DNA of 64,000 nt from an uncultured Lachnospiraceae bacterium (lineage in GTDB: Bacteria > Bacillota > Clostridia > Lachnospirales > Lachnospiraceae), in contig CANQRW010000008.1 in the NCBI GenBank assembly GCA_947626365.1, forward strand, positions 3,111 through 67,110, written 5' to 3'. The position numbers were made by a program, and so were the translations under genes. Each line of letters opens with the position of its first letter. Within the stretch, counting starts at the first letter, position 1. Positions 10,633 through 61,994 of this stretch are shown piece by piece. Below the pieces are notes generated by a model. It was given only the letters and a program-made list of their open reading frames with translations. It had not been told where the DNA came from and searched no databases.

Positions 10633-10664
10633 AAAAGTCCCGAAAGTTCGGGACTTTTTCTTTT
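10633..10664 (+). terminator. Rho-independent terminator
   Basis: AAAAGTCCCGAAAGTTCGGGACTTTTTCTTTT hairpin with a T-tract. Confidence 0.85.
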
Positions 10665-10714
10665 ACGTCATACTGCAAAAAACGCGCCGGTGACGCGTTT
10701 TTTGTATTACGTCA
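10663..10714 (-). repeat. 44-bp palindromic REP-like element, copy A
   Basis: Reverse complement reads TGACGTAA-TACAAAAAACGCGTCACCGGCGCGTTTTTTGCAGTA-TGACGTAA. Homologous to the copies at 23.8 kb and 61.9 kb. Confidence 0.85.
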
Positions 10715-10741
10715 TGCTGCGTATATCAAAGATCCAGATTT

Positions 10742-11536
10742 TTACTCGTCTTCCATCAGATCGTCCATCAGGATCTGGGTGCCGTTCTCGTCCACCTCCA
10801 CCGCCATCAGAAGAGTCCTGGCATCATCCACTTCATAACTGCAGGTGATCAGCGTGTACAGGGCCTTCAGGGGATACTCTACGGCAGCGGCGTAATCACA
10901 GCGGCGGATCATGGCCTGGGCATACCGGTCGAAGTCCTCCTGTCCCTTAAAATAAGGCTGCCGCAGCTCATAGCTGTTGGGAGACCAGAACGCCGCCACA
11001 GCCTTCAGGCGAATCTCCCGCTCCGGCGTATAGATGGAAAAATACTGGTGTTCCCTGAAAAAGTCCTCTTCCTTATAGCGCACCACATCCTTGAACATGG
11101 AACCGTCCTTCATCCGATGCCCGTAGATCACATTATGCCGGCTTCCAAACTTTCCGTCGCTCTCAAAATCCAGATAGATGGTCCCATAGACGCTCTCCCG
11201 GCCCTGGAAATCATGATGCAGGTAATAGTCATAGTCATTGCGGTATACAATGGGATAATCGATGTGAGTGCCGTCGATGCGGATCCAGCCGATTACCTCC
11301 GGATTCACCGCCGCCAGGGCTTCAAAATCAACCGGCGGCTCGTAGGCTTCCGTCTCCGGTTCCGGTTCTTCCGGAAGAATCACGGGCTTTACCGGTCCGA
11401 TCTCCGCCTCCGCCGCAGTCTCCTCTTCCGCCGCAGAGGGCTGTTCCACCCTCAGACGGTCCGCCAGAAGGACCGCGCCCGCTGCCAGAACCAACAGAAC
11501 CGCCGCCCCGGCAATGATTTTTCGTCTTCGCGTCAT
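10742..11536 (-). CDS. srtB: Class B sortase
   Basis: N-terminal anchor, NPEVIGWIRIDGTHIDYP, NDYDYYLHHD, IYGHRMKDGSMF and catalytic TLITC..R. Confidence 0.92.
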   Translation of the reverse strand: MTRRRKIIAGAAVLLVLAAGAVLLADRLRVEQPSAAEEETAAEAEIGPVKPVILPEEPEPETEAYEPPVDFEALAAVNPEVIGWIRIDGTHIDYPIVYRNDYDYYLHHDFQGRESVYGTIYLDFESDGKFGSRHNVIYGHRMKDGSMFKDVVRYKEEDFFREHQYFSIYTPEREIRLKAVAAFWSPNSYELRQPYFKGQEDFDRYAQAMIRRCDYAAAVEYPLKALYTLITCSYEVDDARTLLMAVEVDENGTQILMDDLMEDE

Positions 11537-11664
11537 GGAATCTCCCTCCCTTCAGCACTGCAGCCATTATAGCATATATTTTCCCCGATACAATCTGGTT
11601 CAGGGAAAATATTTTCAAAAAACTGTTGCGGTTCCTCCAAATCTATGCTATACTATCTGAGTTC

Positions 11665-11748
11665 GCGGGAGTGCTGGAATTGGCAGACAGGCAAGACTAA
11701 GGATCTTGTGGGTGTATGCTCGTGTGGGTTCAAGTCCCATCTCCCGCA
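11665..11748 (+). tRNA. tRNA-Leu (anticodon AAG)
   Basis: Acceptor GCGGGAG/CTCCCGC, anticodon arm CAAGA-CTAAGGA-TCTTG (AAG at 11699-11701), long variable arm and GGTTCAAGTCC T-arm. Confidence 0.93.
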
Positions 11749-11756
11749 TTTGAGGA

Positions 11757-11782
11757 AGAGAGCGCCGCTGGCGCTCTTTTTG
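11757..11782 (+). terminator. Rho-independent terminator
   Basis: AAGAGAGCGCCGCTGGCGCTCTTTTT hairpin after the tRNA. Confidence 0.8.
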
Positions 11783-11924
11783 TGCTGCATCAGTATGCAG
11801 GGGCTGTCCGCTCCTCTCAACTCTTTCTGGACATTCTTTCGCTGCCCTGCTATAATATTGCTATAATAGTAGAAACAAAATGTATTTTTCTGAATAAATC
11901 ACAGAAAGCAGTCTATCAGCAAAG

Positions 11925-12117
11925 GGGGGGACCGTATCCTTTCCGCGGACGGCACGATCACCGATCTGGAGAGTCTGCCTGATAACCTCAATGTGAACAA
12001 TATCTACAACAGGCACGCTTACGTCTGCATCATTGATACGAGATCCGCTCCATCGTGGGAGACAGCATGCCCATCATTATCCTCACCACCGTTCTGAAAG
12101 AATGCGCGGGCAAATAA
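11925..12117 (+). pseudogene. Possible fragment of a hybrid sensor kinase/response-regulator gene
   Basis: 12040-12117 translates as EIRSIVGDSMPIIILTTVLKECAGK*, resembling the receiver-domain IR...PIIILT segment. The upstream frame differs and there is no start. Confidence 0.35.
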
Positions 12118-12176
12118 AATGCTGTACTGACTTAAAATGACCTGGCTTCGAAAAATAAAATCAAAAAACGAAAGAG

Positions 12177-15100
12177 GTGTTGACTGTGAGCGAGATGAAT
12201 GAGAATCTGGAATATTTCAGGAACGTGATCCAAAACCCGGATGCGGATACCCTGCCGCTGCCTGACGCTCAGGCACGGGAAGAGGATTTCGACGAGGCGA
12301 TTCTGCGCCGCCCCCTGCCGGACGGCCTTAAGCAGGATCTTGAGGCTTTCGCGGGGCAAACGGGAATTGACCTGACCGCCCTGTATGAGGCGGCTGCCAT
12401 GCTCCTGCTGGCAAAATTCAGCGGCAGTTCAGACGCGCTCTGCGCCCTTGTCCGCGCGGAAAAGCGATTCCCCGTCTACTGCGATTTTCATAAAGAAACA
12501 TCATTTACCGGCTGCTGCCGCGCCGTAAATGCGCAGGCGGATGAGGCGGCGCGGCGCATCGACACTGTGGGTTTTGACGCGCTCTGCGCGGAGCTTGAGC
12601 TGTCTGCCATGCCGGTGCTGACGGAGGATGAAGGATTTTTCAATGATTTCGCGCTCACAGGTTCCGGACCGGCTACCGCGCTGTGCCTGCTTCTTGACGC
12701 GGGAAACGACAGCCTGGGCGCTAAGTACAACGCCGCGCGCTATGGCGAGGACATGATCGGCCGTCTGCTGGATTCGCTGACGGTGGTACTGCAGGCCATC
12801 GCGGCAGGCGAGGACGATACCGGCGCAATCGACATACTTTCCGACGCGCAGCGCGCCGAGTTGGACGGGTTCAACGAGACTGACGCGCCCATGGACGCCG
12901 CGGAGACGCTGATCGACCGTATTGACCGGGCGGCGGAGCGCTTCCCGGACAATATCGCCGTCGTTTATAAGGATAAGCGCTATACTTACCGGGCGTTTTC
13001 CGATCTTACGGACCGGATCGCCGCTTATCTGCGCCGAGCTGGGTTAGGCCGGGAGGACGTAGTCTCCATCCTGATCCCCCGGTGCGAATATATGCCCATC
13101 TGCGCCGTGGGCGTTCTGAAATCCGGCGCGGCTTATCAGCCCCTGGATCCCAGCTATCCGCCGGAACGGCTTGCCTTCATGATGCAGGACGCAGGCGCGA
13201 AGTTCCTCATTGCGGACAAAACGCTTCTTTCCCTTGTGCCGGAGTACGACGGTCCGGTGCTGACGCTGGACGAGATTCCCGCTCTTCCCGCCTGCGAAGA
13301 GATTCTTCCCCGCCCGAAGCCGGAGAATCTGTTCATCCTGCTCTACACCTCAGGCTCCACAGGCACACCCAAAGGCGTCATGCTGGAGCACGGCAATCTG
13401 GCGGCCTTCTGCTGCTGGTTCACAAAGTATTACGAGATGGACGAGAACAGCCGGGCGGCGGCCTACGCGTCCTTCGGCTTTGACGCCTGCATGATGGATA
13501 TGTACCCGACGCTGTCCAGCGGCGCGCAGCTGCACATCATCGCCGAGGACATCCGTCTGGATTTGATCGCCATTCATCAATATTTAACGGAAAACCAGGT
13601 TACGCATATCTTCATGACCACCCAGGTGGGCAGGCAGTACGCGGAACTGTTCCCGGACGGCGACTATCCCAAATATCTGTCCCTGGGCGGAGAGACCCTG
13701 GTACCCGTGCAGCCGCCCAGCTATCGGTTCTCTAACGCCTACGGCCCCACGGAGTGTACCATTTTTACCACGGTTTTCCCCGTGGACAGGCTCTACCGCA
13801 ATGTGCCCATCGGCAAACCCTTAAGCAATGTCAGGCTGTATATCCTTGACGCCCAGGGCCGGCGCGTCCCTGTAGGCGTGCCGGGAGAACTGTGCATCTC
13901 CGGGCCCCAGGTGTCCCGCGGATATCTGAACCGCCCGGAACAGACTGCGCAGGCCTTCGTGAAAAATCCCTTCTGCGGCGACCCGCGCTTTGCGCGGATG
14001 TACCGCACAGGCGACATCGTCCGCTTCCTGCCGGACGGCAGCGTGGAATTTATCGGGCGGCGGGATTCCCAGGTGAAGATCCGCGGCTTCCGCATTGAAC
14101 TGAGCGAGGTGGAAGGCGTTATCCGCCAGTTCGAGGGCATCAAGGACGCCACGGTGGTGGCCTACGACGAGGCCGGCGGCGGCAAGTATGTGGCGGCTTA
14201 CGTGGTGGCGGACGAGCCGGTAGATATAGAGGCGCTCAACCGCTTTATCCGGGAGACCAAGCCGCCCTATATGGTGCCTGCCGTCACCATGCAGATTGAC
14301 CGAATCCCCCTGAACCAGAACCAGAAGGTGAATAAGCGGGCTCTTCCCAAACCGGAACGGCACGCCGCGGCTTACGCGGCCCCTGCGACCGACGCGCAGA
14401 AGAAGATCTGCGAACTGCTGGCAGGCGTGGTCGGACATACGTCCTTTGGCGCGGACACAGACTTTTTTGAGGCGGGACTGACCTCCGTCGGCTCCATCAA
14501 ATTCCTCGTGCTGCTGACCAATGCCTTCGGCGCCGCCGTCTCCTCCAAGACCCTGCGGGAATACAATACGGCGCAGAAGCTGGAGGGCTATCTTAACACG
14601 GCGGAAAAGACCGCCGCCTCCGTCCGGCGCGACCGCTATCCTCTTACCCAGACGCAGATGGGCATCTATGTGGAATGTATGAAGCATCCCGAAGCTGTTT
14701 TCTATAACCTGCCAGGCGTTTTCCCGCTCAGCAGAGACACAGACATAGAGAAGCTGCGTGACGCCGTGGCCCGCGTCGTGGACGCCCACCCTGCTGTGAA
14801 ATGCGCCGTCCGCGCGGACGAGGAAGGCCAGGTATGCATGTTCCCCCAGGACGACCGCTCCGTGGACGTGGATGTCGTCCGGGGTACCGAGGAGGAGTAC
14901 GAGGCGTTCTTCAAGGGATTTGCCAGGCCCTTCGACTTTGAACACGGCCCCCTGTACCGTTTCGCCGTCTTCGTCACCGACGAGCACGTCTATCTTGTCC
15001 TGGACTTTCACCATATCATCAGCGACGGTTCCTCCATCGCGGTGTTCGCCCAGGAACTGGACCGGGCCCTGAGGGGCCAGGAGCTGTTAGGCGAACCCTA

Positions 15101-18100
15101 CTCTCAGTTTGATCTGGCGGCCGACGAGGAGAAGGCGCGGAAGGGCGAGTCATACCGAAGCGCCAAAAACTACTATGACGGCGTATTCAAAGGCGTTTCC
15201 GGCTGCACGACGCCGGAGCGGGACATTTACGAAGAGCAGGAACGCTGCGGTTTCGTCCGCGTCTTCAGCGACAGGCTTTCGCCGGAGCGCGTAGAAGCCT
15301 TCTGCCGCGAGAAACGGATCACGCCCAACGTGTTCTTCCTCTCGCTGATGAGCTTTGTCCTGGGCCGGTATGAACACACGGAAGAGGTCTGCCTGACGAC
15401 AATTTATAATGGCCGCAGCGACGGGCGGACCGCCGCTACCATGGGCATGCTTGTCAAGACGCTGCCGGTGTACGCGGAACCGACGGACAACCGCGGCGTC
15501 GCGGACTATTTAAACGCCATGCAGGAGCAGATCCTCTCCTCCATGAGCAACGATATCTATTCTTTTGCGGAAATCAGTCATGCTTACGGCATCCAGAGCG
15601 ACGTCATGTTCGTCTATCAGGGAGATGATTTCGTCGAATTCGACCTGGGCGGCCAGAAGACGGTGTTCGCCGAGGGCGTGCCCGACGTGGCCAAGTCCCA
15701 GCTGTCCATCGATCTGTTTGTGGAAAAGGGCAGATACCGCTTTGAGTTTGAGTACCGCGCGGACATGTACAGCCCCGCGTTTATCGACCGGCTGACCCAC
15801 GTGCTGGAGGAGGCTGCCATCAGCTTCCTCACTGCCAGAACCCTGGGGGATGTGAACCTTACGCCGGCGGATGAGCTGGAGCGCATCGAGGGCTTTAACG
15901 ACACGGACTATCCCGTGGAGCTGGTCAGCGTGAACCGGCTGTTCGAGGGACAGGCCGCCGCCCACCCTGACCGGCTGGCGCTGATCGCGGCAGGGGAAAA
16001 ATTGACTTATGACGCCCTGAACCGGGCGGCGAACCGGGTGGCCCGCGCGCTGATCGCCCTTGGCGTAGGGAAGGACCAGATCATCGGCCTTATCCTTGAA
16101 CGTGACAAATATGATTATATTGTAAATCTGGGCATCCTGAAGGCGGGCGCGGCGTTTCTGCCCATGACGCCCTCCTATCCTGACGAGCGCATCGAATACT
16201 GCCTCACCGACGCCCAGAGCCCCTTCGTCATTACCACAGAGTCCATCCGCACCCAGCGAAGCGCCCTGTGGGAAGGCAAGCCTTACCGGGTATTGACTGT
16301 CGAGACGCTGCTTGCGGCGGAGGAGGAAGAAAATCCTGACCGGACGATTGATGTGGACGCCCTGGCCTACTGTCTGTATACCTCCGGCTCCACGGGCAAG
16401 CCCAAGGGCGTTATGATTGAACACCGGAACCTGTGCAATTTCGTGAACGCCAACCCGCGCAATATCGAGATTACTAACTACACGAACCACGCTTCCGTGT
16501 CCCTGGCGCTGGCGGCCATCACCTTCGACGTCTCGGTGATGGAGGAATTTATCCCCCTGTGCAACGGCCTGACGGTCTGCATGGCCACGGAGGAAGAAAT
16601 CCACAACCCGGTGGCGCTTGCCAAACTCATGGAAGAAAACAGGGTAGATTTCATGACCTGCACGCCCTCATTTTTATCCAATGTGATCGACCTGGAACAG
16701 ATGCGCGGCGCTATCGCGTATCTGAAGGCCTTCGATTTCGGAGCGGAGGCGTTCCCGCCGGCGCTCTACGGCAAGATCCGCGCCATCAACCCGACGGCCT
16801 TTATCGCCAACGGCTACGGCCCGACGGAGTGTACCGTCAGCTGCTCCACGAAATTCTTAAACGACACAGACAAGATCACCATCGGCGTGCCGCTGTCCAA
16901 CGTTAAGTTCTATGTGATGGATTCCGGAAAACATGTGCTGCCTGTGGGCTTTAAGGGCGAACTGGTCATCTGCGGCGCCGGCGTAGGCCGGGGCTACGTA
17001 AATCTGCCCGACAAGACCCGGGAGGCCTTCTTCCATATGAAGGGCCTGAAGGCGTACCACAGCGGCGACCTGGCCAGATGGACGGAAAAGGGAGAGATCG
17101 ATTTCCTGGGCCGCCTGGACAATCAGGTGAAGCTGCGGGGCCTGCGGGTGGAGCTGGATGAGATTGAAAGCGCCATCAACGCTTACGAGGGCGTCCGCAT
17201 GAGCAAGGTGATCGTGCGCAATAACGGCAGCGAAGACTATCTGGCAGGCTACTTCACCGCCGACAGAACCGTCGATCTGGCTGATCTGACGGCGCGGCTG
17301 CGGGAGACTCTGACGGCCTACATGGTGCCCGGCGCCCTGATGCAGCTGGACGAAATGCCCCTCACCCCCAATGGCAAGACTGACAAAAAGCTCCTGCCCG
17401 ACATCCAGTACGCCGCGGCGCAGCGGGAGTATGTGGCGCCTTCCAGCGAGCTGGAGGCGGAGTTCTGCGAACAGTTTGCCAAAATCCTCGGGCTGGAGCG
17501 GGTCGGAGCCACCGACGACTTCTTTGAGATCGGCGGCACGTCTCTCAGCGCCACCCGGATCGCCATGTACGCGCTGAACAAGGGTTATCCCATTGCCTAC
17601 AAGGATGTATTCGCCTGCCCCACCCCCGCGATGCTGGCCGGGCTGGCAGCCAAGGGCCGCGGCGGCAGTCAGCAGGCAGAGGACACGAATGTGAACGCAT
17701 ACGATCACGCGGCTGCCGGCGGACGGCCTGAGAAGAACGCTGAGACACAGGCAGACAGCGTAGGCAGACACGGCTATGCGGCTGTCAGCGGGCGGCTTAG
17801 GAAGAATGCTGAGACGCAGGCAGACGGCGCGGACACCTATGATTACACAGCCATCAACGAGCTGCTTGAGAAGAACGCGGAAACGCGGCTTGCGGAGGTT
17901 CTGCCCGGCCGCCTGGGCAATATCCTGCTGACCGGCGCGACAGGTTTTCTCGGCATCCATGTGCTGCGGGAGTTCCTGAACAACTATACAGGCAAGGTGT
18001 ACTGTCTTATGCGCAGGGGCCGCCACGCGGCCTGTGAAAAACGCCTGATGTCCATGCTCGACTACTACTTCAGCGATCCCTGCGAGGAGGCCTTCCGGGA

Positions 18101-19025
18101 CCGCATTGTCTGCGTGGAAGGCGACATTACCGACCGCGAGGCTGTGGCAGCCCTTGCGGACCTGGACTGTTCCGTAGTCATCAACTGCGCGGCCTGCGTC
18201 AAGCACTTCGTCAGCGACGACTCGCTGGACCGTATCAATGTAGGCGGCGTTGAAAACCTTGTGGCAATGTGCAGGGCGTCCGGAAAGCGTTTTGTACAGA
18301 TTTCCACTACGTCTGTCGCAGGCGAGGGGGATGAGCGCACGTCCCTTGCTGACAAACGGATGGGCGAGAACGAGCTGTACTTCGGCCAGATCTTGGACAA
18401 CGCCTATGTCCATTCCAAATTCCTCGCGGAGCGTACAGTACTTGAAGCGTGCGCGCAGGGCGGTCTGGACGGACGGATCCTGCGGGTCGGCAACCTGATG
18501 AGCCGCCGCTCCGACGGAGAGTTCCAGATCAATTTCGTCACAAACGGCTTCATGCGCACCCTCAAGGCCTATAAGGCCCTGGGACAGTTCCCCATGGGCG
18601 CAATGCACGTTCCGGCGGAGTTTTCGCCCATCGACTCCACGGCGGCAGCGGTTCTGACCCTGGCGGCCTGCGAGGGCGGCTTCACCGTCTTCCATGCGTA
18701 CAACAGCCATTCCCTCTATATGTCCGACGTGATCTACGCTATGCGCGCCTACGGCTTCGCCATCGATATTGTTCCGGATGAAGTCTTTGCCGCGACACTG
18801 CGTGAAGCCTCCGAACATGCGGAACTCAGCGGAACGGTACTGGGCCTGATCGCTTATGACAGCGGCGACGGTTCGGCGCGATACGAGATTCCCGCGGTCA
18901 ACGACTTTACCGCCAGGGCGCTTTACCGTCTGAATTACAAATGGCCCATCACGGACGACGCCTACCTGGAAAATGCCATCCGCGCCCTGGATACGCTGGG
19001 ATTTTTCGATAATCCGAGGGTATGA
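12177..19025 (+). CDS. Two-module NRPS with terminal thioester reductase: (partial C)-A-T-C-A-T-R
   Basis: A1 YTSGSTGTPKG, T1 FFEAGLTS, C HHIISDG, A2 YTSGSTGKPKG, T2 FFEIGGTSL, R TGATGFLG and YVHSK. The true start could be a few codons downstream. Confidence 0.95.
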   Translation: MLTVSEMNENLEYFRNVIQNPDADTLPLPDAQAREEDFDEAILRRPLPDGLKQDLEAFAGQTGIDLTALYEAAAMLLLAKFSGSSDALCALVRAEKRFPVYCDFHKETSFTGCCRAVNAQADEAARRIDTVGFDALCAELELSAMPVLTEDEGFFNDFALTGSGPATALCLLLDAGNDSLGAKYNAARYGEDMIGRLLDSLTVVLQAIAAGEDDTGAIDILSDAQRAELDGFNETDAPMDAAETLIDRIDRAAERFPDNIAVVYKDKRYTYRAFSDLTDRIAAYLRRAGLGREDVVSILIPRCEYMPICAVGVLKSGAAYQPLDPSYPPERLAFMMQDAGAKFLIADKTLLSLVPEYDGPVLTLDEIPALPACEEILPRPKPENLFILLYTSGSTGTPKGVMLEHGNLAAFCCWFTKYYEMDENSRAAAYASFGFDACMMDMYPTLSSGAQLHIIAEDIRLDLIAIHQYLTENQVTHIFMTTQVGRQYAELFPDGDYPKYLSLGGETLVPVQPPSYRFSNAYGPTECTIFTTVFPVDRLYRNVPIGKPLSNVRLYILDAQGRRVPVGVPGELCISGPQVSRGYLNRPEQTAQAFVKNPFCGDPRFARMYRTGDIVRFLPDGSVEFIGRRDSQVKIRGFRIELSEVEGVIRQFEGIKDATVVAYDEAGGGKYVAAYVVADEPVDIEALNRFIRETKPPYMVPAVTMQIDRIPLNQNQKVNKRALPKPERHAAAYAAPATDAQKKICELLAGVVGHTSFGADTDFFEAGLTSVGSIKFLVLLTNAFGAAVSSKTLREYNTAQKLEGYLNTAEKTAASVRRDRYPLTQTQMGIYVECMKHPEAVFYNLPGVFPLSRDTDIEKLRDAVARVVDAHPAVKCAVRADEEGQVCMFPQDDRSVDVDVVRGTEEEYEAFFKGFARPFDFEHGPLYRFAVFVTDEHVYLVLDFHHIISDGSSIAVFAQELDRALRGQELLGEPYSQFDLAADEEKARKGESYRSAKNYYDGVFKGVSGCTTPERDIYEEQERCGFVRVFSDRLSPERVEAFCREKRITPNVFFLSLMSFVLGRYEHTEEVCLTTIYNGRSDGRTAATMGMLVKTLPVYAEPTDNRGVADYLNAMQEQILSSMSNDIYSFAEISHAYGIQSDVMFVYQGDDFVEFDLGGQKTVFAEGVPDVAKSQLSIDLFVEKGRYRFEFEYRADMYSPAFIDRLTHVLEEAAISFLTARTLGDVNLTPADELERIEGFNDTDYPVELVSVNRLFEGQAAAHPDRLALIAAGEKLTYDALNRAANRVARALIALGVGKDQIIGLILERDKYDYIVNLGILKAGAAFLPMTPSYPDERIEYCLTDAQSPFVITTESIRTQRSALWEGKPYRVLTVETLLAAEEEENPDRTIDVDALAYCLYTSGSTGKPKGVMIEHRNLCNFVNANPRNIEITNYTNHASVSLALAAITFDVSVMEEFIPLCNGLTVCMATEEEIHNPVALAKLMEENRVDFMTCTPSFLSNVIDLEQMRGAIAYLKAFDFGAEAFPPALYGKIRAINPTAFIANGYGPTECTVSCSTKFLNDTDKITIGVPLSNVKFYVMDSGKHVLPVGFKGELVICGAGVGRGYVNLPDKTREAFFHMKGLKAYHSGDLARWTEKGEIDFLGRLDNQVKLRGLRVELDEIESAINAYEGVRMSKVIVRNNGSEDYLAGYFTADRTVDLADLTARLRETLTAYMVPGALMQLDEMPLTPNGKTDKKLLPDIQYAAAQREYVAPSSELEAEFCEQFAKILGLERVGATDDFFEIGGTSLSATRIAMYALNKGYPIAYKDVFACPTPAMLAGLAAKGRGGSQQAEDTNVNAYDHAAAGGRPEKNAETQADSVGRHGYAAVSGRLRKNAETQADGADTYDYTAINELLEKNAETRLAEVLPGRLGNILLTGATGFLGIHVLREFLNNYTGKVYCLMRRGRHAACEKRLMSMLDYYFSDPCEEAFRDRIVCVEGDITDREAVAALADLDCSVVINCAACVKHFVSDDSLDRINVGGVENLVAMCRASGKRFVQISTTSVAGEGDERTSLADKRMGENELYFGQILDNAYVHSKFLAERTVLEACAQGGLDGRILRVGNLMSRRSDGEFQINFVTNGFMRTLKAYKALGQFPMGAMHVPAEFSPIDSTAAAVLTLAACEGGFTVFHAYNSHSLYMSDVIYAMRAYGFAIDIVPDEVFAATLREASEHAELSGTVLGLIAYDSGDGSARYEIPAVNDFTARALYRLNYKWPITDDAYLENAIRALDTLGFFDNPRV

Positions 19026-22588: not shown

Positions 22589-22595
22589 TCTTCGA

Positions 22596-22952: not shown

Positions 22953-22984
22953 CGGTTATTTCCCTCCTTGTCGAATCCGAAATC

Positions 22985-23182: not shown

Positions 23183-23204
23183 GATTGATTTCCTCCTTCT
23201 ATTG

Positions 23205-23717
23205 TCATTTCGATGGTTTTGCAGATAAAAACATCACCATGCTTCTTCCTTCCACCTTGGATGGCTTGTCAACGACAGCGATGTCAGACAATGCCTGTGC
23301 GAAATCATCCAGAATGTACTTGGATTTCGACATGTGGGCCATCTCACGGCCCCGGAAACGCAGGGTCACCTTCACCTTGTCGCCCTTCTCCAGAAACTTC
23401 CTGGCGGCGTTCGTCTTGGTATTCAGGTCGTTGGTGTCAATATTCGGGGTGAGACGCACTTCCTTCACCTCGATCACCTTCTGCTTCTTCCTGGCTTCCT
23501 TTTCTTTTCTGGCCTGCTCATAACGGTATTTGCCGTAATCGATGATCTTGCAGACCGGCGGTTTCGCACCGGGAGCAATCTTCACAAGGTCAAGATCAGC
23601 CTGCTGGGCCAGCTGCAGCGCTTCCCTGGGCGACATGATACCTAACTGCTCTCCATTCTCGCCGATCAGACGAATCTCTTTGTCCCTGATTTGCTCATTG
23701 ATCATTAACTCGCTAAT
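23205..23717 (-). CDS. infC: Translation initiation factor IF-3 (probable ATT start)
   Basis: [27 protein letters not shown] and FRGRE motifs. GGAGGTG lies 7 nt before an in-frame ATT at 23717. Confidence 0.97.
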
Positions 23718-23807
23718 TGTCGTACACCTCCGCATCTTTTTAATATTGGAATCGCATTTTGACCGGGCAGCCCGCAAGATCCGCCCGTTTCGTTATGTTA
23801 TATACTT

Positions 23808-23903
23808 CGATACAATACAAACAAAGCGTCACTGGCGCTTTGCTTGCATACTGACGTAATACAAGCAAAGCGTCACTGGTACCCTGTTTGCGTATTGACG
23901 TAA
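23808..23903 (+). repeat. 44-bp palindromic REP-like element, tandem copies B1/B2
   Basis: TACAAACAAAGCGTCACTGGCGCTTTGCTTGCATAC-TGACGTAA-TACAAGCAAAGCGTCACTGGTACCCTGTTTGCGTAT-TGACGTAA, with a period of 44. Confidence 0.88.
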
Positions 23904-23904
23904 C

Positions 23905-24045
23905 AGAAAAGTGGATAGCATAAATCTATCCACCAAGATAATCCCATGGAATCCAAACCATGTCTCCTGTCTATGAACCAGGGTCACTTACTCGTGCCGA
24001 GGTGAGGTGGATAACCTACTTTCCTGTGCGTTGCTCACATAACTT
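23905..24045 (-). ncRNA. Probable L20 leader (ribosomal-protein autoregulatory attenuator)
   Basis: Upstream of infC-rpmI-rplT. AAGTAGGTTATCCACCTCACC can pair with GGTGGATAG, which also forms the terminator GTGGATAG..CTATCCACTTTT. Confidence 0.7.
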
Positions 24046-24160: not shown

Positions 24161-24775
24161 TTACAGTTTCAGCACCGCCGTCTGTCTGGGCATGCCTTTT
24201 GTGATCTCCAGGCTGTTTCCCTCGTACTCCGCCACATCATCGCAGAGCGCCGTAAACTCATCCAGGGTTCCCAGGACTTCAAAGCCGAAGCTGCCGCTCC
24301 GATAATGCATGGGAATCGTCACAACGGGCTGAATCTGATTTACCACAGCCTTCGCCTGCTTCGCGTCGATGGTAAAGAACCCTCCCACAGGAATCAGAAG
24401 GGCATCCACGCCCTTAAGGATCTGAACCTGCTCTTCCGTAAGGCCGCAGCCCAGATCTCCCAGATGGGCTACGCGGCAGGTGCCGTCGTCCAGAATGTGA
24501 ATGATGTTGGGGCCTCTCTTGGCTCCCTGCACATCGTCATGGTAGGTGGAAATGGTCTGAATCATAAAGGGAGACACACCGCCCTCCTTTATCGCAACCA
24601 CGTGAACCGCCCCATGGTCGCCGTGGCCGTGGCTGCACAGCACCTCATTGGCCTCCGTCCTCAGGGGTTTAAGTCCCGGCACATAACCGTCCTCGTAAGG
24701 ATCCAGCACTATAGCGTATCCCTCCGACTCAATCCTGAAACAGGAATGTCCCAACCATGTAATTTTCATGCGCAA
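24161..24775 (-). CDS. MBL-fold metallo-hydrolase
   Basis: WLGHSCF, SHGHGDH, AHLGDLG, PVGG and IPMHY motifs. Confidence 0.9.
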   Translation of the reverse strand: MRMKITWLGHSCFRIESEGYAIVLDPYEDGYVPGLKPLRTEANEVLCSHGHGDHGAVHVVAIKEGGVSPFMIQTISTYHDDVQGAKRGPNIIHILDDGTCRVAHLGDLGCGLTEEQVQILKGVDALLIPVGGFFTIDAKQAKAVVNQIQPVVTIPMHYRSGSFGFEVLGTLDEFTALCDDVAEYEGNSLEITKGMPRQTAVLKL

Positions 24776-49393: not shown

Positions 49394-49526
49394 GTTCATA
49401 TCCTCCATTTATCATCATTATTTTGCATTATTTATTTTGCACCATTTATTTTGCGGGCCGCAGTCCGCAGCCCTCGATACCCTTCGCGCCGCTGGGGACA
49501 TCCCCGGGTTTACCGGCGCTGCCCCG

Positions 49527-50144: not shown

Positions 50145-50266
50145 AACGATACAACACCTTCTTTCTCTATTCTTGCGGCAAACAGGCCGCTAAAAATCCG
50201 AATATCCGCAGCCTCCGACTGCCAACCGCCGGTCTAGGCTCGCTGCCGGCCGCCGGTTCCAGGCCG

Positions 50267-51790: not shown

Positions 51791-52016
51791 AAACCCCCGC
51801 CTCCCATCTGATTTACCAGAATTGTACCACAAATCAGCTTAAAAGGAAAGAAAAAACAAGACAAAAGAGACCGCCGCAAAAGATTCTTCCTTTTTGCAGC
51901 AGTCTCCCCATACAAACAAACGGCTTATCATATTTCAAGGCGGTCTTCAGCCGGTCACAAGCGCTCCGCTCCAAGCCCCTTTCATCCAGCCGCCAAAGTT
52001 CCGTTCAGAATACTTT

Positions 52017-53024: not shown

Positions 53025-53109
53025 AATATCTGCCTCCTTTTCCATCCGAAGCGAAACCGGTTCGCTCCGATTGGTACGTCATTTATTCTCTCTGATCCGT
53101 CCCGGGAAA

Positions 53110-56100: not shown

Positions 56101-56247
56101 CTGATCACACGAACAAGAGCAGCTGTTGATATTGCTGCCCTTGATCTCCAGTCGGACCCGGTATTCACGACCGCCATCCTGTACCAGGCCCTCCACTCCG
56201 ACTTCCCCTTTCCAGAAAGTCTTTATTTCCATTTTTGAAACCCGCAT
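53110..56247 (-). CDS. SNF2-family helicase with N-terminal SWIM zinc finger
   Basis: CSCSC..CPH, LADDMGLGKT, IIDEAQ, LTGTPIENR, SLKAGGTGLNL and QATDRTHRIGQ. Start moved to ATG 56247 (GGAGGTG RBS). Confidence 0.93.
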   Translation of the reverse strand: MRVSKMEIKTFWKGEVGVEGLVQDGGREYRVRLEIKGSNINSCSCSCDQGTSYKGLCPHEKAMFDFYRRKAEGEPERQVSTSLQVRNMIREYTNREVAAIAEKEEEEPVELVPRLLFGRQEIRVEFRVGRKRLYLVKDLVAFSEAVAKGSLVEYGRELAFYHSREAFSEGSRQMLDMVLELSESFREHFIEFKKSLYAAVPALRQLNLSRIRRDRFFRLLTGQEIETENHLGEKQKLLVVRENPELEIHVRKAGAKGIRVFLDKEITSFNGESLLYIIRGGRLYLCDEAFSRGMEVFFRLMTQGYGAPYEVTVNEKDIPLFYERVLRKLEDFGILDVDGVELDRYRPAELTARFLLESPDAGQVILHPTLSYGSYSFHPLDDERVPGSICRDVPGEFRISQALTRYFKYRDSRTGDLVIRDDEAAVYRLLTEGIEELKALGEVVIPENISRLKVLPAGNVSVGIQAEGNWLELTVEAGNLSGEELVRVLEAYHEKRSYYRLKSGEFLRLEDNGLMTVSRMMDGLAVSGPDIQKNRIRVPRYRALFLDSLYRDRRDIRLERNQRFKAIVRGMKSVEDSDFEIPPGFEKVLRGYQKAGFRWLRTLDFYGFGGILADDMGLGKTLQVLSVLYDEGLKGNLQTSLIVCPASLVYNWEYEIQKFTPSLRTLLIVGTAAEREEKLRRITEYQVVITSYDLLRRDLDFYQKTEFRFQIIDEAQYIKNPSTRSAQAVKAVRAVTKYALTGTPIENRLSELWSIFDYLMPGFLYSYQRFKNTFESPIVREDNKEALELLRRMTGPFILRRLKGQVLKELPEKLNTVVYSQMEGRQKELYTASAWKLKRQLEQGGDENKIQILAALTRLRQLCCDPGLVYEDYADGSAKLETCMEVVRSAVDSGYKILLFSQFTSMLDRIAERLAREEIGYYMLTGQTPKEERIRLVNAFQKDDTPVFLISLKAGGTGLNLTAADMVIHYDPWWNVAAQNQATDRTHRIGQTKTVTVVQLISKGTIEENILNLQRAKERLAEQVIAGDEISLGSLSYEEILKLLE

Positions 56248-56271
56248 GGACACCTCCGTCTCCATGGAAAC

Positions 56272-56660
56272 ACTCGCGCAAGCTCTATTCGCAAAATCGC
56301 CTCTTCGGGGCTTTCCGCTGCTTCGCAGCTCCTTTTTGCTCATATTCTTGCGCTTGAGCCCGCCTGCATTCCACGCACCAGTTCACTCGCGCAAGCTCTA
56401 TTCGCAAAATCGCCCCTGCGGGGCTCTCCGCTGCTTCGCAGCTCCCTTTTGCTCATATTCTTGCGCTTAAACTCGCTCGTATCTTGCACACCAGTTCACT
56501 CGCGCAAGCTTTATTCGCAAAATCGCCCCTGCGGGGCTTTCCGCTGCTTCGCAGCTCCCTTTTGCTCATATTCTTGCGCTCCCTTCGCCGTCATCTGTCC
56601 GGGCAAATCTCTATGCGAGCATAGATTTGCCCGGACAGATGACGGCGAGTGAACTGGTGC
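56272..56660. repeat. Inverted-repeat-bounded element: three ~113-bp tandem units plus a long hairpin
   Basis: An 83-bp core starts at 56272, 56385 and 56498. (G)CACCAGTTCACTCGC occurs at the unit junctions and its reverse complement GCGAGTGAACTGGTGC at 56645-56660. A hairpin of about 30 bp lies at 56585-56649. Confidence 0.93.
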
Positions 56661-56661
56661 T

Positions 56662-58584
56662 TTACATCCGTTCCGGCGCCTCAAATCCCAGAAGATGAAT
56701 GCAGGTTTCCAGCACTTCCCTGGTGAGAGTGATCAGCTGAATGTAGCCTGCCTTCTTCGTCTCGTCTTCCTCTTTCAGAATCATGGTCGTATTGTAAAAG
56801 CTGCCGAAGGCATCGGACAGTTCATAGATAAACTGGCAGATCTTGTGAGGAGCCGTCTCCGCAAAAGCAGTCTCCACCACCTCGTTGTAGGCGGACAGCT
56901 TTAACATCAGGTTCTTGGCCTCCGCCGAATCCGCGGGAAGGATTCCCACAGACGCCGGCGTGATCCCGGTGCCGGAGCCTCCGCTCTGTTCCGGAACCAT
57001 TTTCCCGTAAGCCCCGCCGGGCGCAGAAACCGCTCCGTCTGCGCCTTCCCCGGCCTTTCGGCCTTCCTCATATTTGGCAAGAATGGATTTGATCCGCACA
57101 ATGGTATACAGGACATAGGGCCCTGTATTGCCCTCGAAGGAGGTGAACCGGTCAATATCAAACACATAGTCCTTGGACACCTGATTGGACAGATCGCCGT
57201 ACTTTAAGGCTGCCAGGCCGATGATCCGGGAAGTCTCTTCCGCCTCCGCCTGATCCATGGTCCGGTTCTCCATAATCCGGTCGTACACCGCGTCGTCGAT
57301 CTCTTTCACCAGCTTCTCAAGACGCATGACGCCGCCCTCTCTGGTCTTGAAGGGCTTTCCGTCCTTTCCGTTCATAGTGCCGCACATCATATGGATCATC
57401 TTTGTCTCCGGCTTCACGTAGCCGGCCTTCTTGGCTACCCGGAACACCTGAATGAAATGCAGTTCCTGCCGCTTGTCCGTAATATAGATATACTGAGTGG
57501 GCTGATAATCCTTCTCCCTCTCAATGATAGTTCCCAGATCGGAGGTGGCATAGAGAGCCGCGCCGTCGGATTTGCGGATAATGCAGGGCGGCAGTTCCTT
57601 GGGATCTCCCTCCTGGGCGATATCCACCACCAGGGCCCCTTCGCTCTCGTAAGCCAGCCCCTTGTCCTGCAGGTCCTGAATCAGCCACGGAATGTAGGGC
57701 TGGGCGTCGCTCTCGCCCTTCCACAGATCAAAGGTCACTTCCAGGCTTCCGTAATTCTTCTTCAGATCCGCCAGAGACACGTTCATGATATGACGCCAGA
57801 TCGCCCGGAATGGCTCATAGCCGTTCTGCAGCTTAAAGGTCGCTTCCTGGGCCCTGGCCCGAAACGCCTCATCCTCCTTGGATCTGGCGCTGGCAGCCGG
57901 ATAAATCTCTTCCAGCTCGCTTATGGTAAAGGGCGCTTCCTTCGGATATTCGCCTTTATAGTTCTCGTCAAAGTAAGGCAGATTCGGCTGTCTGTCCCGC
58001 AGCTCCTCAATGATCAGCCCCATCTGCAGTCCCCAGTCCCCCAGATGGACGTCTCCGATCATATGGTATCCCAGGAAATTGCCCAGCCGCTTGATGCACT
58101 CCCCGATAATGGCGGTCCGCAGATGGCCTACGTGGAGAGGTTTGGCCACATTGGCCCCGCCGTAATCCACGATCACCGTCTTATTCTGTCCCACGTTCTC
58201 CGCGCCCAGCTTGTCCGCCGCCTTCATCCGGTTCAGATATCCGGCCAGATACTCGCCGCTCAGCTTCAGATTGATAAATCCCGGCATGACCGCGCTGATA
58301 TCGGAAAACATTGCCTCACACTCTGCAGGGCCGTCTTCCGCGCATACGGCCGCATCCGTCTGACACGCTCCCTTGCCCTTCAGGTAATTTACCACATCCG
58401 CGGCAATATCGATGGGCTTTTTGTGGTACGCCTTCGCCGCCGCCATGGCTCCGTTGCACTGGTACTCGCACAGATCCGGCCGGTTGGAAAGCGTCACTTT
58501 ACCATAAGACGCATCATATCCGCAGGCGGCAAACGCCGCCCTCATCTCTTCCGCAATACAATCAAGAATCTTCTTCAATGTCAC
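56662..58584 (-). CDS. argS: Arginine--tRNA ligase
   Basis: DYGGANVAKPLHVGHLR (HIGH), KSDGAALY, KTREG and GNTGPY motifs. Confidence 0.97.
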   Translation of the reverse strand: MTLKKILDCIAEEMRAAFAACGYDASYGKVTLSNRPDLCEYQCNGAMAAAKAYHKKPIDIAADVVNYLKGKGACQTDAAVCAEDGPAECEAMFSDISAVMPGFINLKLSGEYLAGYLNRMKAADKLGAENVGQNKTVIVDYGGANVAKPLHVGHLRTAIIGECIKRLGNFLGYHMIGDVHLGDWGLQMGLIIEELRDRQPNLPYFDENYKGEYPKEAPFTISELEEIYPAASARSKEDEAFRARAQEATFKLQNGYEPFRAIWRHIMNVSLADLKKNYGSLEVTFDLWKGESDAQPYIPWLIQDLQDKGLAYESEGALVVDIAQEGDPKELPPCIIRKSDGAALYATSDLGTIIEREKDYQPTQYIYITDKRQELHFIQVFRVAKKAGYVKPETKMIHMMCGTMNGKDGKPFKTREGGVMRLEKLVKEIDDAVYDRIMENRTMDQAEAEETSRIIGLAALKYGDLSNQVSKDYVFDIDRFTSFEGNTGPYVLYTIVRIKSILAKYEEGRKAGEGADGAVSAPGGAYGKMVPEQSGGSGTGITPASVGILPADSAEAKNLMLKLSAYNEVVETAFAETAPHKICQFIYELSDAFGSFYNTTMILKEEDETKKAGYIQLITLTREVLETCIHLLGFEAPERM

Positions 58585-58659
58585 CGATCTCCTTACTTTA
58601 TATATAGCTGTTCTCTCCGATGTTGTATATTATGACGCCAGGGTTTATCCGGCTGAGTC

Positions 58660-60174
58660 TTACTGGATCCACGCGCCGTCCGCGCCGACTTGATAGCCGT
58701 CGGGCGTTGTGGTGTTCACCAGAAGAGATCCGAGCGGTCCGCCCTCTGCCTCGCTGAAATAATACCACTTTCCATCGATCTCATGCCATCCGGTATACAT
58801 ATATCCCTGTGTGCCGTCCGGCTTATCATGCAGGAAGTACCGGTTCCCGTCCGCATCCGTAAGCCATCCGCTTGTCATGTAGCCACCCGCATCAAAGTAA
58901 TACCAGCTGGTCTTGCCCTGCCACTCAAGCAGATTCCAGCCGTTTGACGGGTAAGTGCCGTCCTTATAACGGTACCACCAGCCCTTTTCCCCGGCTTCCC
59001 AACTGCCGAAGGATTCAGGCGTGGATGGCGGCGCGCTGTAGCTGTCGTCCTCGTCGGAGGAAGAACTGCTGCCGCCGCTATAAGGGGCGGCGACCACCTC
59101 GACCCAGAAAGGATGCTTAGATTCCAACCCGCCATTTAATTCGCGAACCAGATAGAACTCTGCAGATGCTCCCTCGGTGGATTTTTTGCCGGTAATGATC
59201 ATAGAATCGCCATCCGGCCCCATTTTACAGTCCAGATATCCGCTGACTGTCGGGCCGATCTCGAACCCATCGAACGGATAGCCGTTAAAGGACACCCTGA
59301 CAGACTCTCCCACTGGCAGACTCTTGACTCCCACCCAACGGTCATTGCCTTCTTCATCCTGATAATATTTGTGTTCAAAAATCTCATATTGGGAAGGAAC
59401 GATAAGGGCTTCACCAAAGCCGCCGAAATCATCGGACACCGGAACCCGCTGGCTGGAATAAGCATAGTACGAAAGCCAATAGTAAAGCTCGCCGCGAGTC
59501 ACATATACTCCTTCTGCTCCGATACCTGGGTCAATATAGTCTGCCGGAATCGCAAGCGTGATCTCATGTCTTTCACCCATCTGATAGCTGCAGTCGAGAT
59601 CCTTTGTGCTTACCGGGGAATCGTCCTTGAATCCGTGCGCCTTAGGAACAACAGAATACAGGACGCATTGAACGTAGCGGCCGCCGTCCTCCATCTCGAC
59701 CTGCTCAAGTTTCACCTCTACGAAAACCTCTATCTTATCGACGTCCCCGCCATCAAAAAGCTGCGCGATTTCATTTCCGTGCTGCTCAGCGATCGTTTTC
59801 GCCACATCGGCCAGGACGGTTTTGTTCTTGTCTGATTCCAGCAGAGCTTTAAACTTGCTTATCATCTCTGCGTCCAGCCCTTGGGGGAAGACGATTTTGC
59901 CATCCGCTGATATGATTTCTGCGGCATCGGAACCGTCCTTGTTTCCGGACTCCCTATCGGCATCACTCGGACTTGCCACACGGTAACTGCTCTCGTTTTT
60001 GACCTTCTTACTGGCATTACTTGGACTTGCCACAGGGTGACCGTCGGGAGTTCCCGCCGCAGCGCCTGTATCCGCAAATCCCGTAACAGATATGTTTGCC
60101 GCCAACAGAGCCGCTATAAGCGCGACGGCAGTGATTTTTTTCAGTTTCATCCTCATAATTCTCTTCCATCTCAT
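58660..60174 (-). CDS. Secreted surface protein with C-terminal cell-wall-binding repeats
   Basis: Signal peptide, ASPSNA/ASPSDA motifs, a Ser-rich linker and WYYFD..GYM..GW repeats ending TPDGYQVGADGAWIQ. Confidence 0.85.
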   Translation of the reverse strand: MRWKRIMRMKLKKITAVALIAALLAANISVTGFADTGAAAGTPDGHPVASPSNASKKVKNESSYRVASPSDADRESGNKDGSDAAEIISADGKIVFPQGLDAEMISKFKALLESDKNKTVLADVAKTIAEQHGNEIAQLFDGGDVDKIEVFVEVKLEQVEMEDGGRYVQCVLYSVVPKAHGFKDDSPVSTKDLDCSYQMGERHEITLAIPADYIDPGIGAEGVYVTRGELYYWLSYYAYSSQRVPVSDDFGGFGEALIVPSQYEIFEHKYYQDEEGNDRWVGVKSLPVGESVRVSFNGYPFDGFEIGPTVSGYLDCKMGPDGDSMIITGKKSTEGASAEFYLVRELNGGLESKHPFWVEVVAAPYSGGSSSSSDEDDSYSAPPSTPESFGSWEAGEKGWWYRYKDGTYPSNGWNLLEWQGKTSWYYFDAGGYMTSGWLTDADGNRYFLHDKPDGTQGYMYTGWHEIDGKWYYFSEAEGGPLGSLLVNTTTPDGYQVGADGAWIQ

Positions 60175-60425
60175 CTACGTTGGTTGATAGTTACCTTCAG
60201 GCCCCGCAAATCCTTGATTGGAAAGGCGGTGATATTATATTATACAGGAAATATCCGGCAAATGCAACCGCTGCGTTATCGACTTTGTTTCTGACTTTCG
60301 GTATTCGCTTACATCATTCAGCGCTGCATCATGACGGATTTCGTTGACTGCGATGTGGAAAATATCTTATAATTATGAAATAGAGATCCATCTTCCGATT
60401 CAGGAACGATAAGGAGGTTCTGACA

Positions 60426-61022
60426 ATGTGCGGCAGATATTATGTGTCAGGAGAAATGACGGCGGAACTCCGCCGGGTCGCGAAACAGTTCCACACTGAT
60501 ATTGGCTGCGGCCGCATGGATATATATCCGTCACAGGAAGCCGCAGTACTCGCCGGCAGAGACCATGACAGAGGCCATGAACTGGCCGCTGTTCCTATGC
60601 TCTGGGGCTTTCCCCGGCACACGGGAAACGGCTTACTCATTAACGCCAGGGCGGAAACTGCCCTGGACAAACCAATGTTCCGGGACAGCCTGCTCAAACG
60701 CCGGTGTGTCATACCGGCCGGCGGATTCTATGAGTGGAACCGCTCAAAAGAGAAGGTTGACTTTTACAGATCCGGCATGCCGGTCCTCTATATGGCCGGG
60801 TTTTACAATATCTTTCAGGAAACGCCCAGATTCGTGATCCTGACCACCTCTGCCAACGCTTCCGTTTCCCCGGTCCATGATCGGATGCCGCTGATTTTGG
60901 AGGCGGACGCGCTGGAATCCTGGATATTTGATGACACATTCTTGCGCCGGATCCTGCAGCAGACGCCGCTGCCGCTGGAACACCGGCAGGATTACGAACA
61001 GCAGACCCTTCCGTTTCTCTGA
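60426..61022 (+). CDS. SRAP (SOS response-associated peptidase / abasic-site processing) family protein
   Basis: N-terminal MCGRY, INARAET, RCVIPAGGFYEW and HDRMPLIL motifs. Confidence 0.93.
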   Translation: MCGRYYVSGEMTAELRRVAKQFHTDIGCGRMDIYPSQEAAVLAGRDHDRGHELAAVPMLWGFPRHTGNGLLINARAETALDKPMFRDSLLKRRCVIPAGGFYEWNRSKEKVDFYRSGMPVLYMAGFYNIFQETPRFVILTTSANASVSPVHDRMPLILEADALESWIFDDTFLRRILQQTPLPLEHRQDYEQQTLPFL

Positions 61023-61181
61023 CGTAATACAAACGGATATAGTCTGACAATCGTTTAACCATATCCGGCTATATGAGGATGGCAATATCCGGAAATATGG
61101 CAAAACATGCTATGATATTTTCATCAGGAACAGGCTTCGTCCCCAAAACCGCTCCCGGCAGCCCCGGCAAATCACAGACAA

Positions 61182-61544
61182 TCAAAAGAAGAAATAATCA
61201 TCCGGGTCAAGACCGGCTTCCTCAAGAGCCTCACGTCTCTCATCGTCATCCATGTATTCCAGATCTTCCACATCGATACCCGCATCCTCCAGTTCATCCA
61301 ACTGGTATTCATCGATTCCCAGAGCCTCGCAGAGACGGGCAGTCTCATCCTCATCCTCCTCATCCTCGTCATCCTCATCCTCGTCCTCATCCTCGTCTGC
61401 GTCTTCCTCATCCTCTTCGCAGCTGTCGGTATCCTCTGATTCTTCCTCCATACTCGCAAACGCCAGACTGTCCATTGCCTTTTCCAGAGGATCCAGTTCG
61501 CCGTCATGGTTCAGGTCAAAGAAATCCCCAAAAAATCCTTTCAT
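61182..61544 (-). CDS. Very acidic hypothetical protein
   Basis: AAGGAG RBS, DLNHDGELDPLE motif, long D/E tract and repeated LEDAGID/LEEAGLD. Confidence 0.75.
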   Translation of the reverse strand: MKGFFGDFFDLNHDGELDPLEKAMDSLAFASMEEESEDTDSCEEDEEDADEDEDEDEDDEDEEDEDETARLCEALGIDEYQLDELEDAGIDVEDLEYMDDDERREALEEAGLDPDDYFFF

Positions 61545-61719
61545 TTCTCAAATCTCCTTTCCAAGCTGAATATTCAGGCACTGCCTTCATTACTTATATC
61601 ATTTTACTACATATTCCGGAAGCCTGCAATATGCGTCCTATAAAGAAGGGAAGCGTGCAGCTCCTGATTTTATCTTTCACCAACTTTCGGGATATTTCTC
61701 CGACAACCAGCGGAAAATA

Positions 61720-61940
61720 TTCCGACAATCATCAGAATTACTGCGATGCAGTGATTCGCTCTGATATTAACCGGACAGACAATATGCAGAAGAACCCGGA
61801 AAGAGTCCGGCGCCTTATGCGTTCTTTTGCGAGGAACCAGGGCGGACAGGTCCCGAATACCGTTCTGGCCCAGGATACCGCGGCAAATGATGAGATGCCG
61901 ATTAACGAAGAAACGGCTGCTTCTTACGTCAATGCCCAGC
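61720..61940 (+). pseudogene. Internal fragment of an AAA+ ATPase (DUF4143-type) gene
   Basis: The frame reads YCDAVIRSDINRTDNMQKNPERVRRLMRSFARNQGGQVPNTVLAQD..INEETAASYVNA, with no start or Walker A. It stops at the repeat element. Confidence 0.6.
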
Positions 61941-61942
61941 GT

Positions 61943-61994
61943 TACGGCAACACAAAAAACGCGTCACTGGCGCGTTTTCTGCATACTGACGTAA
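61943..61994 (+). repeat. 44-bp palindromic REP-like element, copy D
   Basis: CACAAAAAACGCGTCACTGGCGCGTTTTCTGCATAC-TGACGTAA. Confidence 0.85.

Follow-up and report, generated by a model that had tools for sequence, protein, structure and literature searches.

A 44-nucleotide hairpin repeat beside transcription terminators in uncultured Lachnospiraceae of the rabbit gut

Repetitive extragenic palindromic (REP) elements are spread by Y1/HUH enzymes, the REP-associated tyrosine transposases (RAYTs). To our knowledge, REP-type elements and RAYTs are known chiefly from Proteobacteria, and hardly any equivalents have been described in Clostridia, a group that dominates gut communities. Among insertion sequences (ISs) of the IS200/IS605 family, IS608 inserts 3' of TTAC, and insertion into the lagging-strand template, with a replication strand bias, has been described. 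Class C group II introns target the position immediately 3' of intrinsic terminator hairpins, which they enter in a single orientation. Small noncoding repeats such as BOX, RUP, Correia/NEMIS, ERIC, and MIRU complete the list, and we know of none that has been reported as a 44-nt hairpin module abutting a terminator. Here, we describe such a module, first noticed in a 64,000-nt stretch (the window) of an uncultured Lachnospiraceae bacterium, positions 3111 to 67110 of contig CANQRW010000008.1 (C8) in the 3.50-Mb, 144-contig assembly GCA_947626365.1. All of the genomes compared with it are metagenome-assembled genomes (MAGs). Below, C numbers denote contigs of this assembly unless a genome is given, L numbers denote loci, and G numbers denote genomes.

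The full unit is 46 nt long and consists of AATAC, a 10-nt arm, the loop TCACTGG, a second 10-nt arm, GCATAC, and the 8-mer TGACGTAA. Units occur singly or in head-to-tail arrays, and adjoining units have their terminal AA in common, which gives the exact 44-bp period. The 44-nt module is made up of a 35-nt hairpin (ATAC, arm, TCACTGG, arm, GCAT) and a 9-nt linker, ACTGACGTA.

Like the REP elements and REPINs (REP doublets forming hairpins) of Proteobacteria, the units are short, extragenic, imperfect palindromes with hundreds of copies, conserved flanking bases, and compensated stems. They likewise form a lineage-specific family, often lie after genes, and have neither terminal inverted repeats nor target duplications. 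However, they form direct 44-bp tandems and not the inverted doublets of REPINs and bacterial interspersed mosaic elements (BIMEs), they keep strictly, and in one orientation, to the 3' side of terminators, and no RAYT gene was found. The GT[AG]G tetranucleotide of REP elements is absent from the 5' foot of the hairpin, where the conserved flank is AATAC, with GCATAC-TGACGTAA on the 3' side. Of the four features that define REP/RAYT membership, the units show one, that of a high-copy extragenic palindrome, and lack the other three. With IS200/IS605 elements (the IS608-type "peel and paste" elements) and their palindrome-associated derivatives, the units share a hairpin-defined end and the lack of inverted repeats and duplications; insertion 3' of a short motif and a strand bias relative to replication may be further likenesses. 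The unit nevertheless consists of one 35-nt hairpin, where the IS elements have distinct left and right ends; this hairpin differs from those of the IS resident in this genome, and the transposase of that IS does not co-occur with the unit. The targeting resembles that of class C group II introns, but the unit lacks an intron RNA structure, and the genome yielded no reverse transcriptase. BOX, RUP, Correia, ERIC, and MIRU repeats are also small, noncoding, intergenic, and expanded in restricted lineages; they are larger, at 100 to 150 bp or more, Correia and RUP have terminal inverted repeats and target duplications, and MIRUs are operon-internal tandem repeats.

The 8-mer TGACGTAA occurs 208 times genome-wide, compared with 20 to 73 times for its one-letter neighbors (3 to 10 times commoner), and same-strand copies are spaced by 43 bp in 8 cases and by 44 bp in 12. 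A genome search with a profile built from 114 units returned 239 nonoverlapping units, 218 of them at E<1e-3. All of the copies reported initially are present, and with 218 to 239 units the family is far larger than the four seen in the window. The 218 units form 177 arrays (140 single, 33 double, and 4 triple) of direct repeats with a 43- to 44-bp period, and the few inverted pairs face each other across one terminator. This amounts to 62 units per Mb, versus 28 per Mb in the sister sample.

As single-stranded DNA (ssDNA), the unit is predicted to fold into a 12- to 14-bp hairpin of -13 to -15.7 kcal/mol (z of about -5). Loop and tail are at least 90% conserved across units, and five arm positions vary in step. 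At least seven arm subtypes are perfectly paired, the main ones being AAAAAACGCG, AAACAAAGCG, GAGCAGAGCG, AAATAAAGCG, AACAAACGCG, AAAAAGAGCG, and AACCAAAGCG. Among 76 distinct units, we found changes on both sides of 7 of the 13 stem pairs. The covariation totaled 98 cells, compared with 35 in shuffles (0 of 500 as high), and the signal was gone once the partner columns were shifted by 1 to 3. Because this alignment was preselected for units with at least 9 of 10 positions paired, the percentage paired is inflated, while the covariation counts are unaffected. Three features argue for a specific protein that recognizes folded ssDNA: arms that pair although their sequence is free to vary, a loop and linker that do not vary, and ends that are uniform. 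Many copies are degenerate, and a perfect 10-bp stem is found in only 57 of 168; there are also mixed-subtype units, which join the 5' arm of one subtype to the 3' arm of another. Both ends are complete in 174 of the 218 units (80%). In 14 the 5' part is missing and the tail kept, and in 11 the tail is missing; most of the latter have a short alternative linker, GCAT-GGAA-ATAC, without the 8-mer TGACGTAA.

The units lie between genes and on one side of a terminator. With genes called by our own codon-usage caller (2,826 genes, 87% coding; the calls are approximate), 162 of the 177 arrays (~92%) are intergenic, and units are almost absent from coding sequence. Of the 157 intergenic arrays for which a neighbor was scored, 130 (~83%) have their TGACGTAA end turned toward a gene that converges on them, whose stop codon is a median of 70 nt away. 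The 50 nt past this end have a mean fold energy of -17.2 kcal/mol; the opposite side averages -7.3, and random 50-mers average -9.6. In 143 of the 177 arrays (81%), a hairpin at or below -12 kcal/mol lies beyond the TGACGTAA end, with its foot a median of 4 nt from the unit; on the unit strand, an A-run precedes this hairpin in 51% of the 143, and a T-run follows it in just 24%. On the sense strand of the terminated gene, the stop codon is followed by the terminator hairpin, its T-run, and then TTACGTCAGTATGC-hairpin-GTATT, and the consensus 3' of TGACGTAA, TA(C/A)AAAA, is identical to the start of a unit. The initial description of copies parked beside terminators was right about the adjacency and has to be corrected on the arrangement, since each unit is downstream of the converging gene's terminator and in a fixed orientation. 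For that reason the unit is not part of the 3' untranslated region (UTR) of the converging gene: units sit just past the end of transcription. GC skew matches gene direction for 83% of genes, and in 108 of 132 arrays it is the TTACGTCA strand that is rich in G (leading-strand sequence), a count confounded with gene direction (the discordant classes hold 9 and 13 arrays).

We also observed a second repeated hairpin family, GGGGCTGCTGCAGAA...(CAGTGAA)...TTCTGCAGCAGCCCC, of 40 to 80 nt (for example, at C4:28000, C12:6016, C19:25314, and C1:171422). It is often the terminator beside a unit and at times stands directly before the tail TTTGCATACTGACGTAA.

Comparison with loci of other MAGs and with 1.36 Mb of the closest sister genome (G041, 83 to 94% identical) gave clean presence/absence pairs (Table 1). 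Empty sites, for which the initial annotation had proposed looking, are thus found at orthologous positions in sister species. Terminal inverted repeats and consistent target duplications, the marks of a miniature inverted-repeat transposable element (MITE) of the DDE kind, were absent from the alignments of empty and filled sites. Among 45 orthologous sites, 12 were filled in both genomes, 9 in the sister only, and 24 in this genome only, so that 33 are lineage specific. At shared sites whose flanks are 91 to 95% identical, the unit subtype can differ (C1:136490, C18:45150, and C4:52909). The unit at C56:19248 is a chimera of the sister's two tandem units, joined within the loop; the site at C65:15985 and its counterpart L110 differ by a full unit versus a tail-only remnant; and a 5'-truncated unit stands at C46:523, where the sister is empty. 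The unit and its adjacent hairpin are missing together from several sites (L030, L051, and L066 among them). All clean cases are compatible with one reading of the junctions, in which the inserted segment runs from ATAC to TGACGTA or, on the other strand, begins after T^ (the caret marks a junction) with TACGTCAG and ends with GTAT, directly after the last T of the terminator T-run. The junctions read TTTGT^, GAT^, and TTTTA^ at about 8 clean sites, with an ambiguity of 1 to 2 nt. Exact-protein look-ups for further assemblies gave no match or gave contigs identical to the window or broken inside a unit. In L090, L094, and L095, which come from the same organism in other sequencing runs, contigs end inside units A and D of the window; the repeat therefore breaks short-read assemblies.

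A strict pattern for the unit had 70 matches in this genome. Five other species of the genus had 34, 11, 5, 4, and 1, and there were none in another 18 congeneric species or in 16 other families searched within the order. In a scan of 185,579 species genomes, all 73 loci returned came from "Lapin" (rabbit gut) uncultured Lachnospiraceae MAGs. A covariance model run on one genome from each of 100 other genera gave weak matches in three only, with a TCACTGG loop and a GCATAC-like tail. The family is limited to a subset of species in one genus, all of them rabbit-gut MAGs. Plasmid, phage, IMG/VR, and JGI metagenome collections held no match to the units. An Rfam scan of the window returned only two tRNAs at gathering score, with palindromic microRNA models below threshold (including in a permissive scan around copy B), and a literature search by unit sequence found unrelated primers only. 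As had been supposed at the outset, then, this is a dispersed, non-autonomous, REP-like family that is apparently undescribed. One locus in another genus of the family (L102, G057:C76:18450-18950) holds a 230-bp direct repeat with the unit-like hairpin CATCAAAACTG-TCACTGG-CAGTTTTGATG-CATACTAAGG, downstream of an apparent 11-codon leader open reading frame on the opposite strand.

The reading we favor, although we are no more than half persuaded of it, is that of a miniature mobile element, non-autonomous, confined to one lineage, and REP-like in a broad sense, of which the units are copies and which targets terminators and spreads by insertion at their side. In its favor are the copy number and sharp ends, the stable and covarying hairpin, the oriented adjacency to terminators, the turnover between species, and the patchy distribution; the G-rich-strand count, the lack of terminal inverted repeats and of consistent target duplications, and the TTAC insertion sites of the resident IS are hints of a single-stranded route. 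A unit would insert in a single orientation immediately after the T-run of an intrinsic terminator, giving on the sense strand the terminator hairpin, the T-run, and T^TACGTCAGTATGC-hairpin-GTAT. Its own end, a hairpin followed by TTTGTAT, would re-create the target, and such self-regeneration would explain why arrays run head to tail with a period of exactly 44 bp. The invariant loops and tails could then recombine, which would delete units, make chimeras, and swap subtypes. The folded ssDNA hairpin would be recognized in trans by a structure- and sequence-specific nuclease/transferase of the HUH/Y1 kind, for which there is known precedent, and the junction would probably lie at TGACGTA^A (T^TACGTCA). 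The earlier placing of TGACGTAA at the boundary agrees with a junction at or next to this position.

Several observations weigh against this reading. No mobilizing enzyme was found. A search for PF01797 gave one intact Y1 gene (C11:58545-58901) and fragments, and the protein is an IS200/IS605 equivalog (161 bits) that scored 39.6 with the RAYT model, against a cutoff of 80. The end hairpins of its IS, GGGCTTTAGCCC and CCACCCGTTTTACGGGTGG, are unlike the unit hairpin with its TCACTGG loop. The Y1 gene is absent from the sister genome and from three other unit-bearing genomes, and four genomes of the genus that have no units carry it. Because all of the genomes are MAGs, genes that are repeated or lie on plasmids may have been missed in the comparison. 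The 14 5'-truncated copies, one of them at a site that is empty in the sister, fit copying better than pure cut-and-paste. We saw no polymorphism within the species, and other assemblies are identical at copy A. Finally, the replication strand bias is inseparable from the gene-direction bias: the G-rich-strand count agrees as well with targeting by gene direction as with insertion into the lagging-strand template.

The resident Y1 transposase is probably not the mobilizing enzyme. Its element (C11:58270-59146, locus L001; other copies at L096:1240-2160 and L089:1400-1800) encodes a 153-aa transposase and runs from TTAC^GGGCTTTAGCCC... to ...CCACCCGTTTTACGGGTGGCGGCGACT^ (the right end is also written ...GGCGGCGACT^); like IS608, it inserts 3' of TTAC. 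The C11 copy lies exactly at the GTATTAC of a unit. In another MAG, a copy (element 93% and transposase 97% identical) follows a terminator's GTTGTTTTAC beside a unit, and in G002 a unit's TTACGTCAG is followed directly by a decayed copy. The units and this IS occupy the same niche: the IS lies at TTAC beyond a hairpin and T-run, and it takes the TTAC within the 8-mer as its target. The link to RAYTs suggested initially did not hold. We rejected it on the RAYT score below the cutoff, the lack of co-occurrence with units, and the lack of the RAYT-style flanking by units, as well as the missing GT[AG]G box and inverted BIME/REPIN pairing. An origin from TnpB/omega-RNA was rejected on the lack of a PF07282 match in the genome, and retro-copying was rejected on the lack of a reverse transcriptase (RVT_1) match. 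A survey of prokaryotic HUH enzymes counts Clostridia with the phyla in which the IS200-type subclass is abundant, does not list them among the groups in which RAYT-type subclasses tend to co-occur, and places RAYT classes mainly outside Clostridia (PMC6006769). We regard it as possible, though we would put less weight on it, that a 44-nt single-hairpin module with a self-regenerating target 3' of terminators is moved by something other than a RAYT or the resident IS200 transposase. This could be a hairpin-specific enzyme of another kind, or host replication/repair that recognizes the conserved loop TCACTGG and the linker ACTGACGTA.

Spread without any dedicated enzyme, through replication template switching or ectopic gene conversion, seems unlikely to us. 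In the template-switching version, a strand stalled at a terminator hairpin would pair its T-run with the A-rich 5' arm (TACAAAAA...) of a unit elsewhere, copy one or more 44-nt modules, and return. The identity of the 3' flank consensus with the unit start would be expected, the empty site of the double insertion at C15:40682 has TACACAAAAAC, and truncated, tail-only, and chimeric copies all exist; searches for Y1/RAYT, TnpB, and reverse transcriptase genes gave no dedicated enzyme. However, 80% of units have exactly the same two ends, and arms do not resemble their own flanks more than those of other units (permutation p=0.35). The invariant loop and tail and the compensated arms point to a specific recognition factor, and A-runs before terminators are universal, yet the family is found in few species only.

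Comparably improbable is that the unit is a cis element useful to the host, such as a backup or bidirectional terminator, a transcription insulator separating neighboring genes, or a site for a conserved hairpin-binding protein, spread and retained by selection. The constant position between a terminator and the next gene would suit this, as would the 12 of 45 orthologous sites kept in both species and the look-alikes found at low copy number in three other genera of the family, which share the TCACTGG loop and the GCATAC tail. Units are nevertheless lacking from most species within the genus, sites turn over fast, and just 57 of 168 copies keep a perfect 10-bp stem. Nor does the unit have the GC-rich stem and free U-tract of an intrinsic terminator: its T-run is consumed in the 3' stem arm and is followed by GCATAC/GTATT. 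Some copies, moreover, appear to truncate genes (the SRAP gene and the DUF4143 fragment described below).

A structured RNA, whether a motif of the 3' UTR or a small RNA whose end is set by the neighboring terminator, is very improbable. Covariation in the stem together with a conserved loop does look like an RNA motif, and in one inspected look-alike from another genus, the T-run of the adjacent terminator is on the unit strand. In this genome, however, the unit lies beyond the converging gene's terminator and antisense to the gene in ~83% of cases, A-runs before the adjacent hairpin are twice as frequent on the unit strand as T-runs after it, and we found no conserved promoter-side flank and no Rfam family. 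We give almost no credence to TGACGTAA being merely an over-represented transcription factor or uptake-signal site, as its excess over one-letter neighbors might suggest, since most excess 8-mers in the contexts listed belong to a 46-nt unit, the density is ~60 per Mb with hardly any units inside coding sequence, and the short-linker variant lacks the 8-mer altogether.

Within the window, TGACGTAA occurs 7 times versus 0.6 expected from shuffles (0 of 100 shuffles reached 7), and the hairpin core AAACGCGTCACYGGCGCGTTT matches exactly in copies A and D. Each full copy abuts a hairpin, as had been reported (Table 1). Copy A follows the tRNA-Leu gene, B1 and B2 lie between the hairpin of the metallo-beta-lactamase-fold gene and the infC (IF-3) gene (23205-23777, minus strand), and D follows the Rce1-like gene. 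The start of copy D had been placed at 61943, six bases too far left. The TGACGTAA box beside unit A is the tail remnant of a lost preceding unit, whereas the copy at 61924-61931 (minus strand), inside a gene fragment, is an unrelated chance occurrence.

The solitary TGACGTAATACAAA box, real as reported, may have shortened the gene for a SOS-response-associated peptidase (SRAP; PF02586) at 60426-61022, because the match to the profile covers just positions 1 to 182 of 214. The truncated ATPase gene proposed at copy D is plausible. Fragment 61690-61948 has no Pfam match of its own; it resembles a DUF4143 (AAA-ATPase-associated) protein from a Bacteroides plasmid gene (35% identity, E 4e-6), and the likeness to relatives ends where unit D starts.

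Unit-flanked genes in the set that we inspected (a HIT-domain protein, DUF5662, and PDDEXK_2 paralogues by Pfam; the rest judged from translations only) are ordinary, and the idea that they are special was dropped; they fit a rule of a unit after each terminator. At C91:319-2458 and C118:2356-4379 there are four near-identical tandem PD-(D/E)XK "transposase" paralogues (PF12784, Rpn-like), with units in most of the gaps between or beside them. Elsewhere in the window, a 2,282-aa gene resembling a nonribosomal peptide synthetase (12177-19025) lies just downstream of two tRNA-Leu genes, with AMP-binding, PP-binding, condensation, and reductase domains seen in matching contigs of other assemblies.

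Table 1. Features of the repeat family in the window (window coordinates) and pairs of filled and empty sites (contig or locus coordinates)
Feature	Location	Strand	Details
Intrinsic terminator of tRNA-Leu(CAG)	10634..10662	+	Hairpin GTCCCGAAAGTTCGGGAC and T-run; T-run abuts the TTACGTCA end of unit A
Unit A, 46 nt	10663..10708	-	AATAC-AAAAAACGCG-TCACCGG-CGCGTTTTTT-GCAGTA-TGACGTAA; variant tail GCAGTA; profile match
Extra TGACGTAA box directly upstream of unit A	10707..10714	-	Exactly 44 bp from the box at 10663
Unit B1, 46 nt	23814..23859	+	Subtype AAACAAAGCG / CGCTTTGCTT
Unit B2, tandem, 44 bp downstream of B1	23858..23903	+	Degenerate: 3' arm TACCCTGTTT unpaired; tail GCGTAT-TGACGTAA
Terminator-type hairpin	23911..23933	-	GTGGATAG-CATAAAT-CTATCCAC; downstream of metallo-beta-lactamase-fold gene 24161-24775 (-)
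Solitary box TGACGTAATACAAA (tail and first unit bases, no hairpin)	61020..61033	+	TGA is the stop codon of the SRAP gene
Unit D, 46 nt	61949..61994	+	AACAC-AAAAAACGCG-TCACTGG-CGCGTTTTCT-GCATAC-TGACGTAA
Terminator-type hairpin after Rce1-like gene 62038-62928 (-)	~62002..62031	-	A/T-run abuts the TGACGTAA end of unit D
Clean presence/absence	L049 vs C4:89396		46 nt
Clean presence/absence	L074 vs C26:37446		44 nt; flanks 95-100% identical
Clean presence/absence	L076 vs C40:1917		
Clean presence/absence	C1:179088 vs L165:4890		46 nt
Clean presence/absence	C15:40682 (two units) vs L128:10522		86 nt

The family is very small, sharply defined, strictly tied to terminators, and dynamic between sister species, and no cognate transposase was found for it. 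In practical terms, the units break short-read assemblies, can truncate genes, and could serve as strain markers for uncultured gut bacteria. Identifying the factor that mobilizes them could reveal a new way of moving hairpin DNA.

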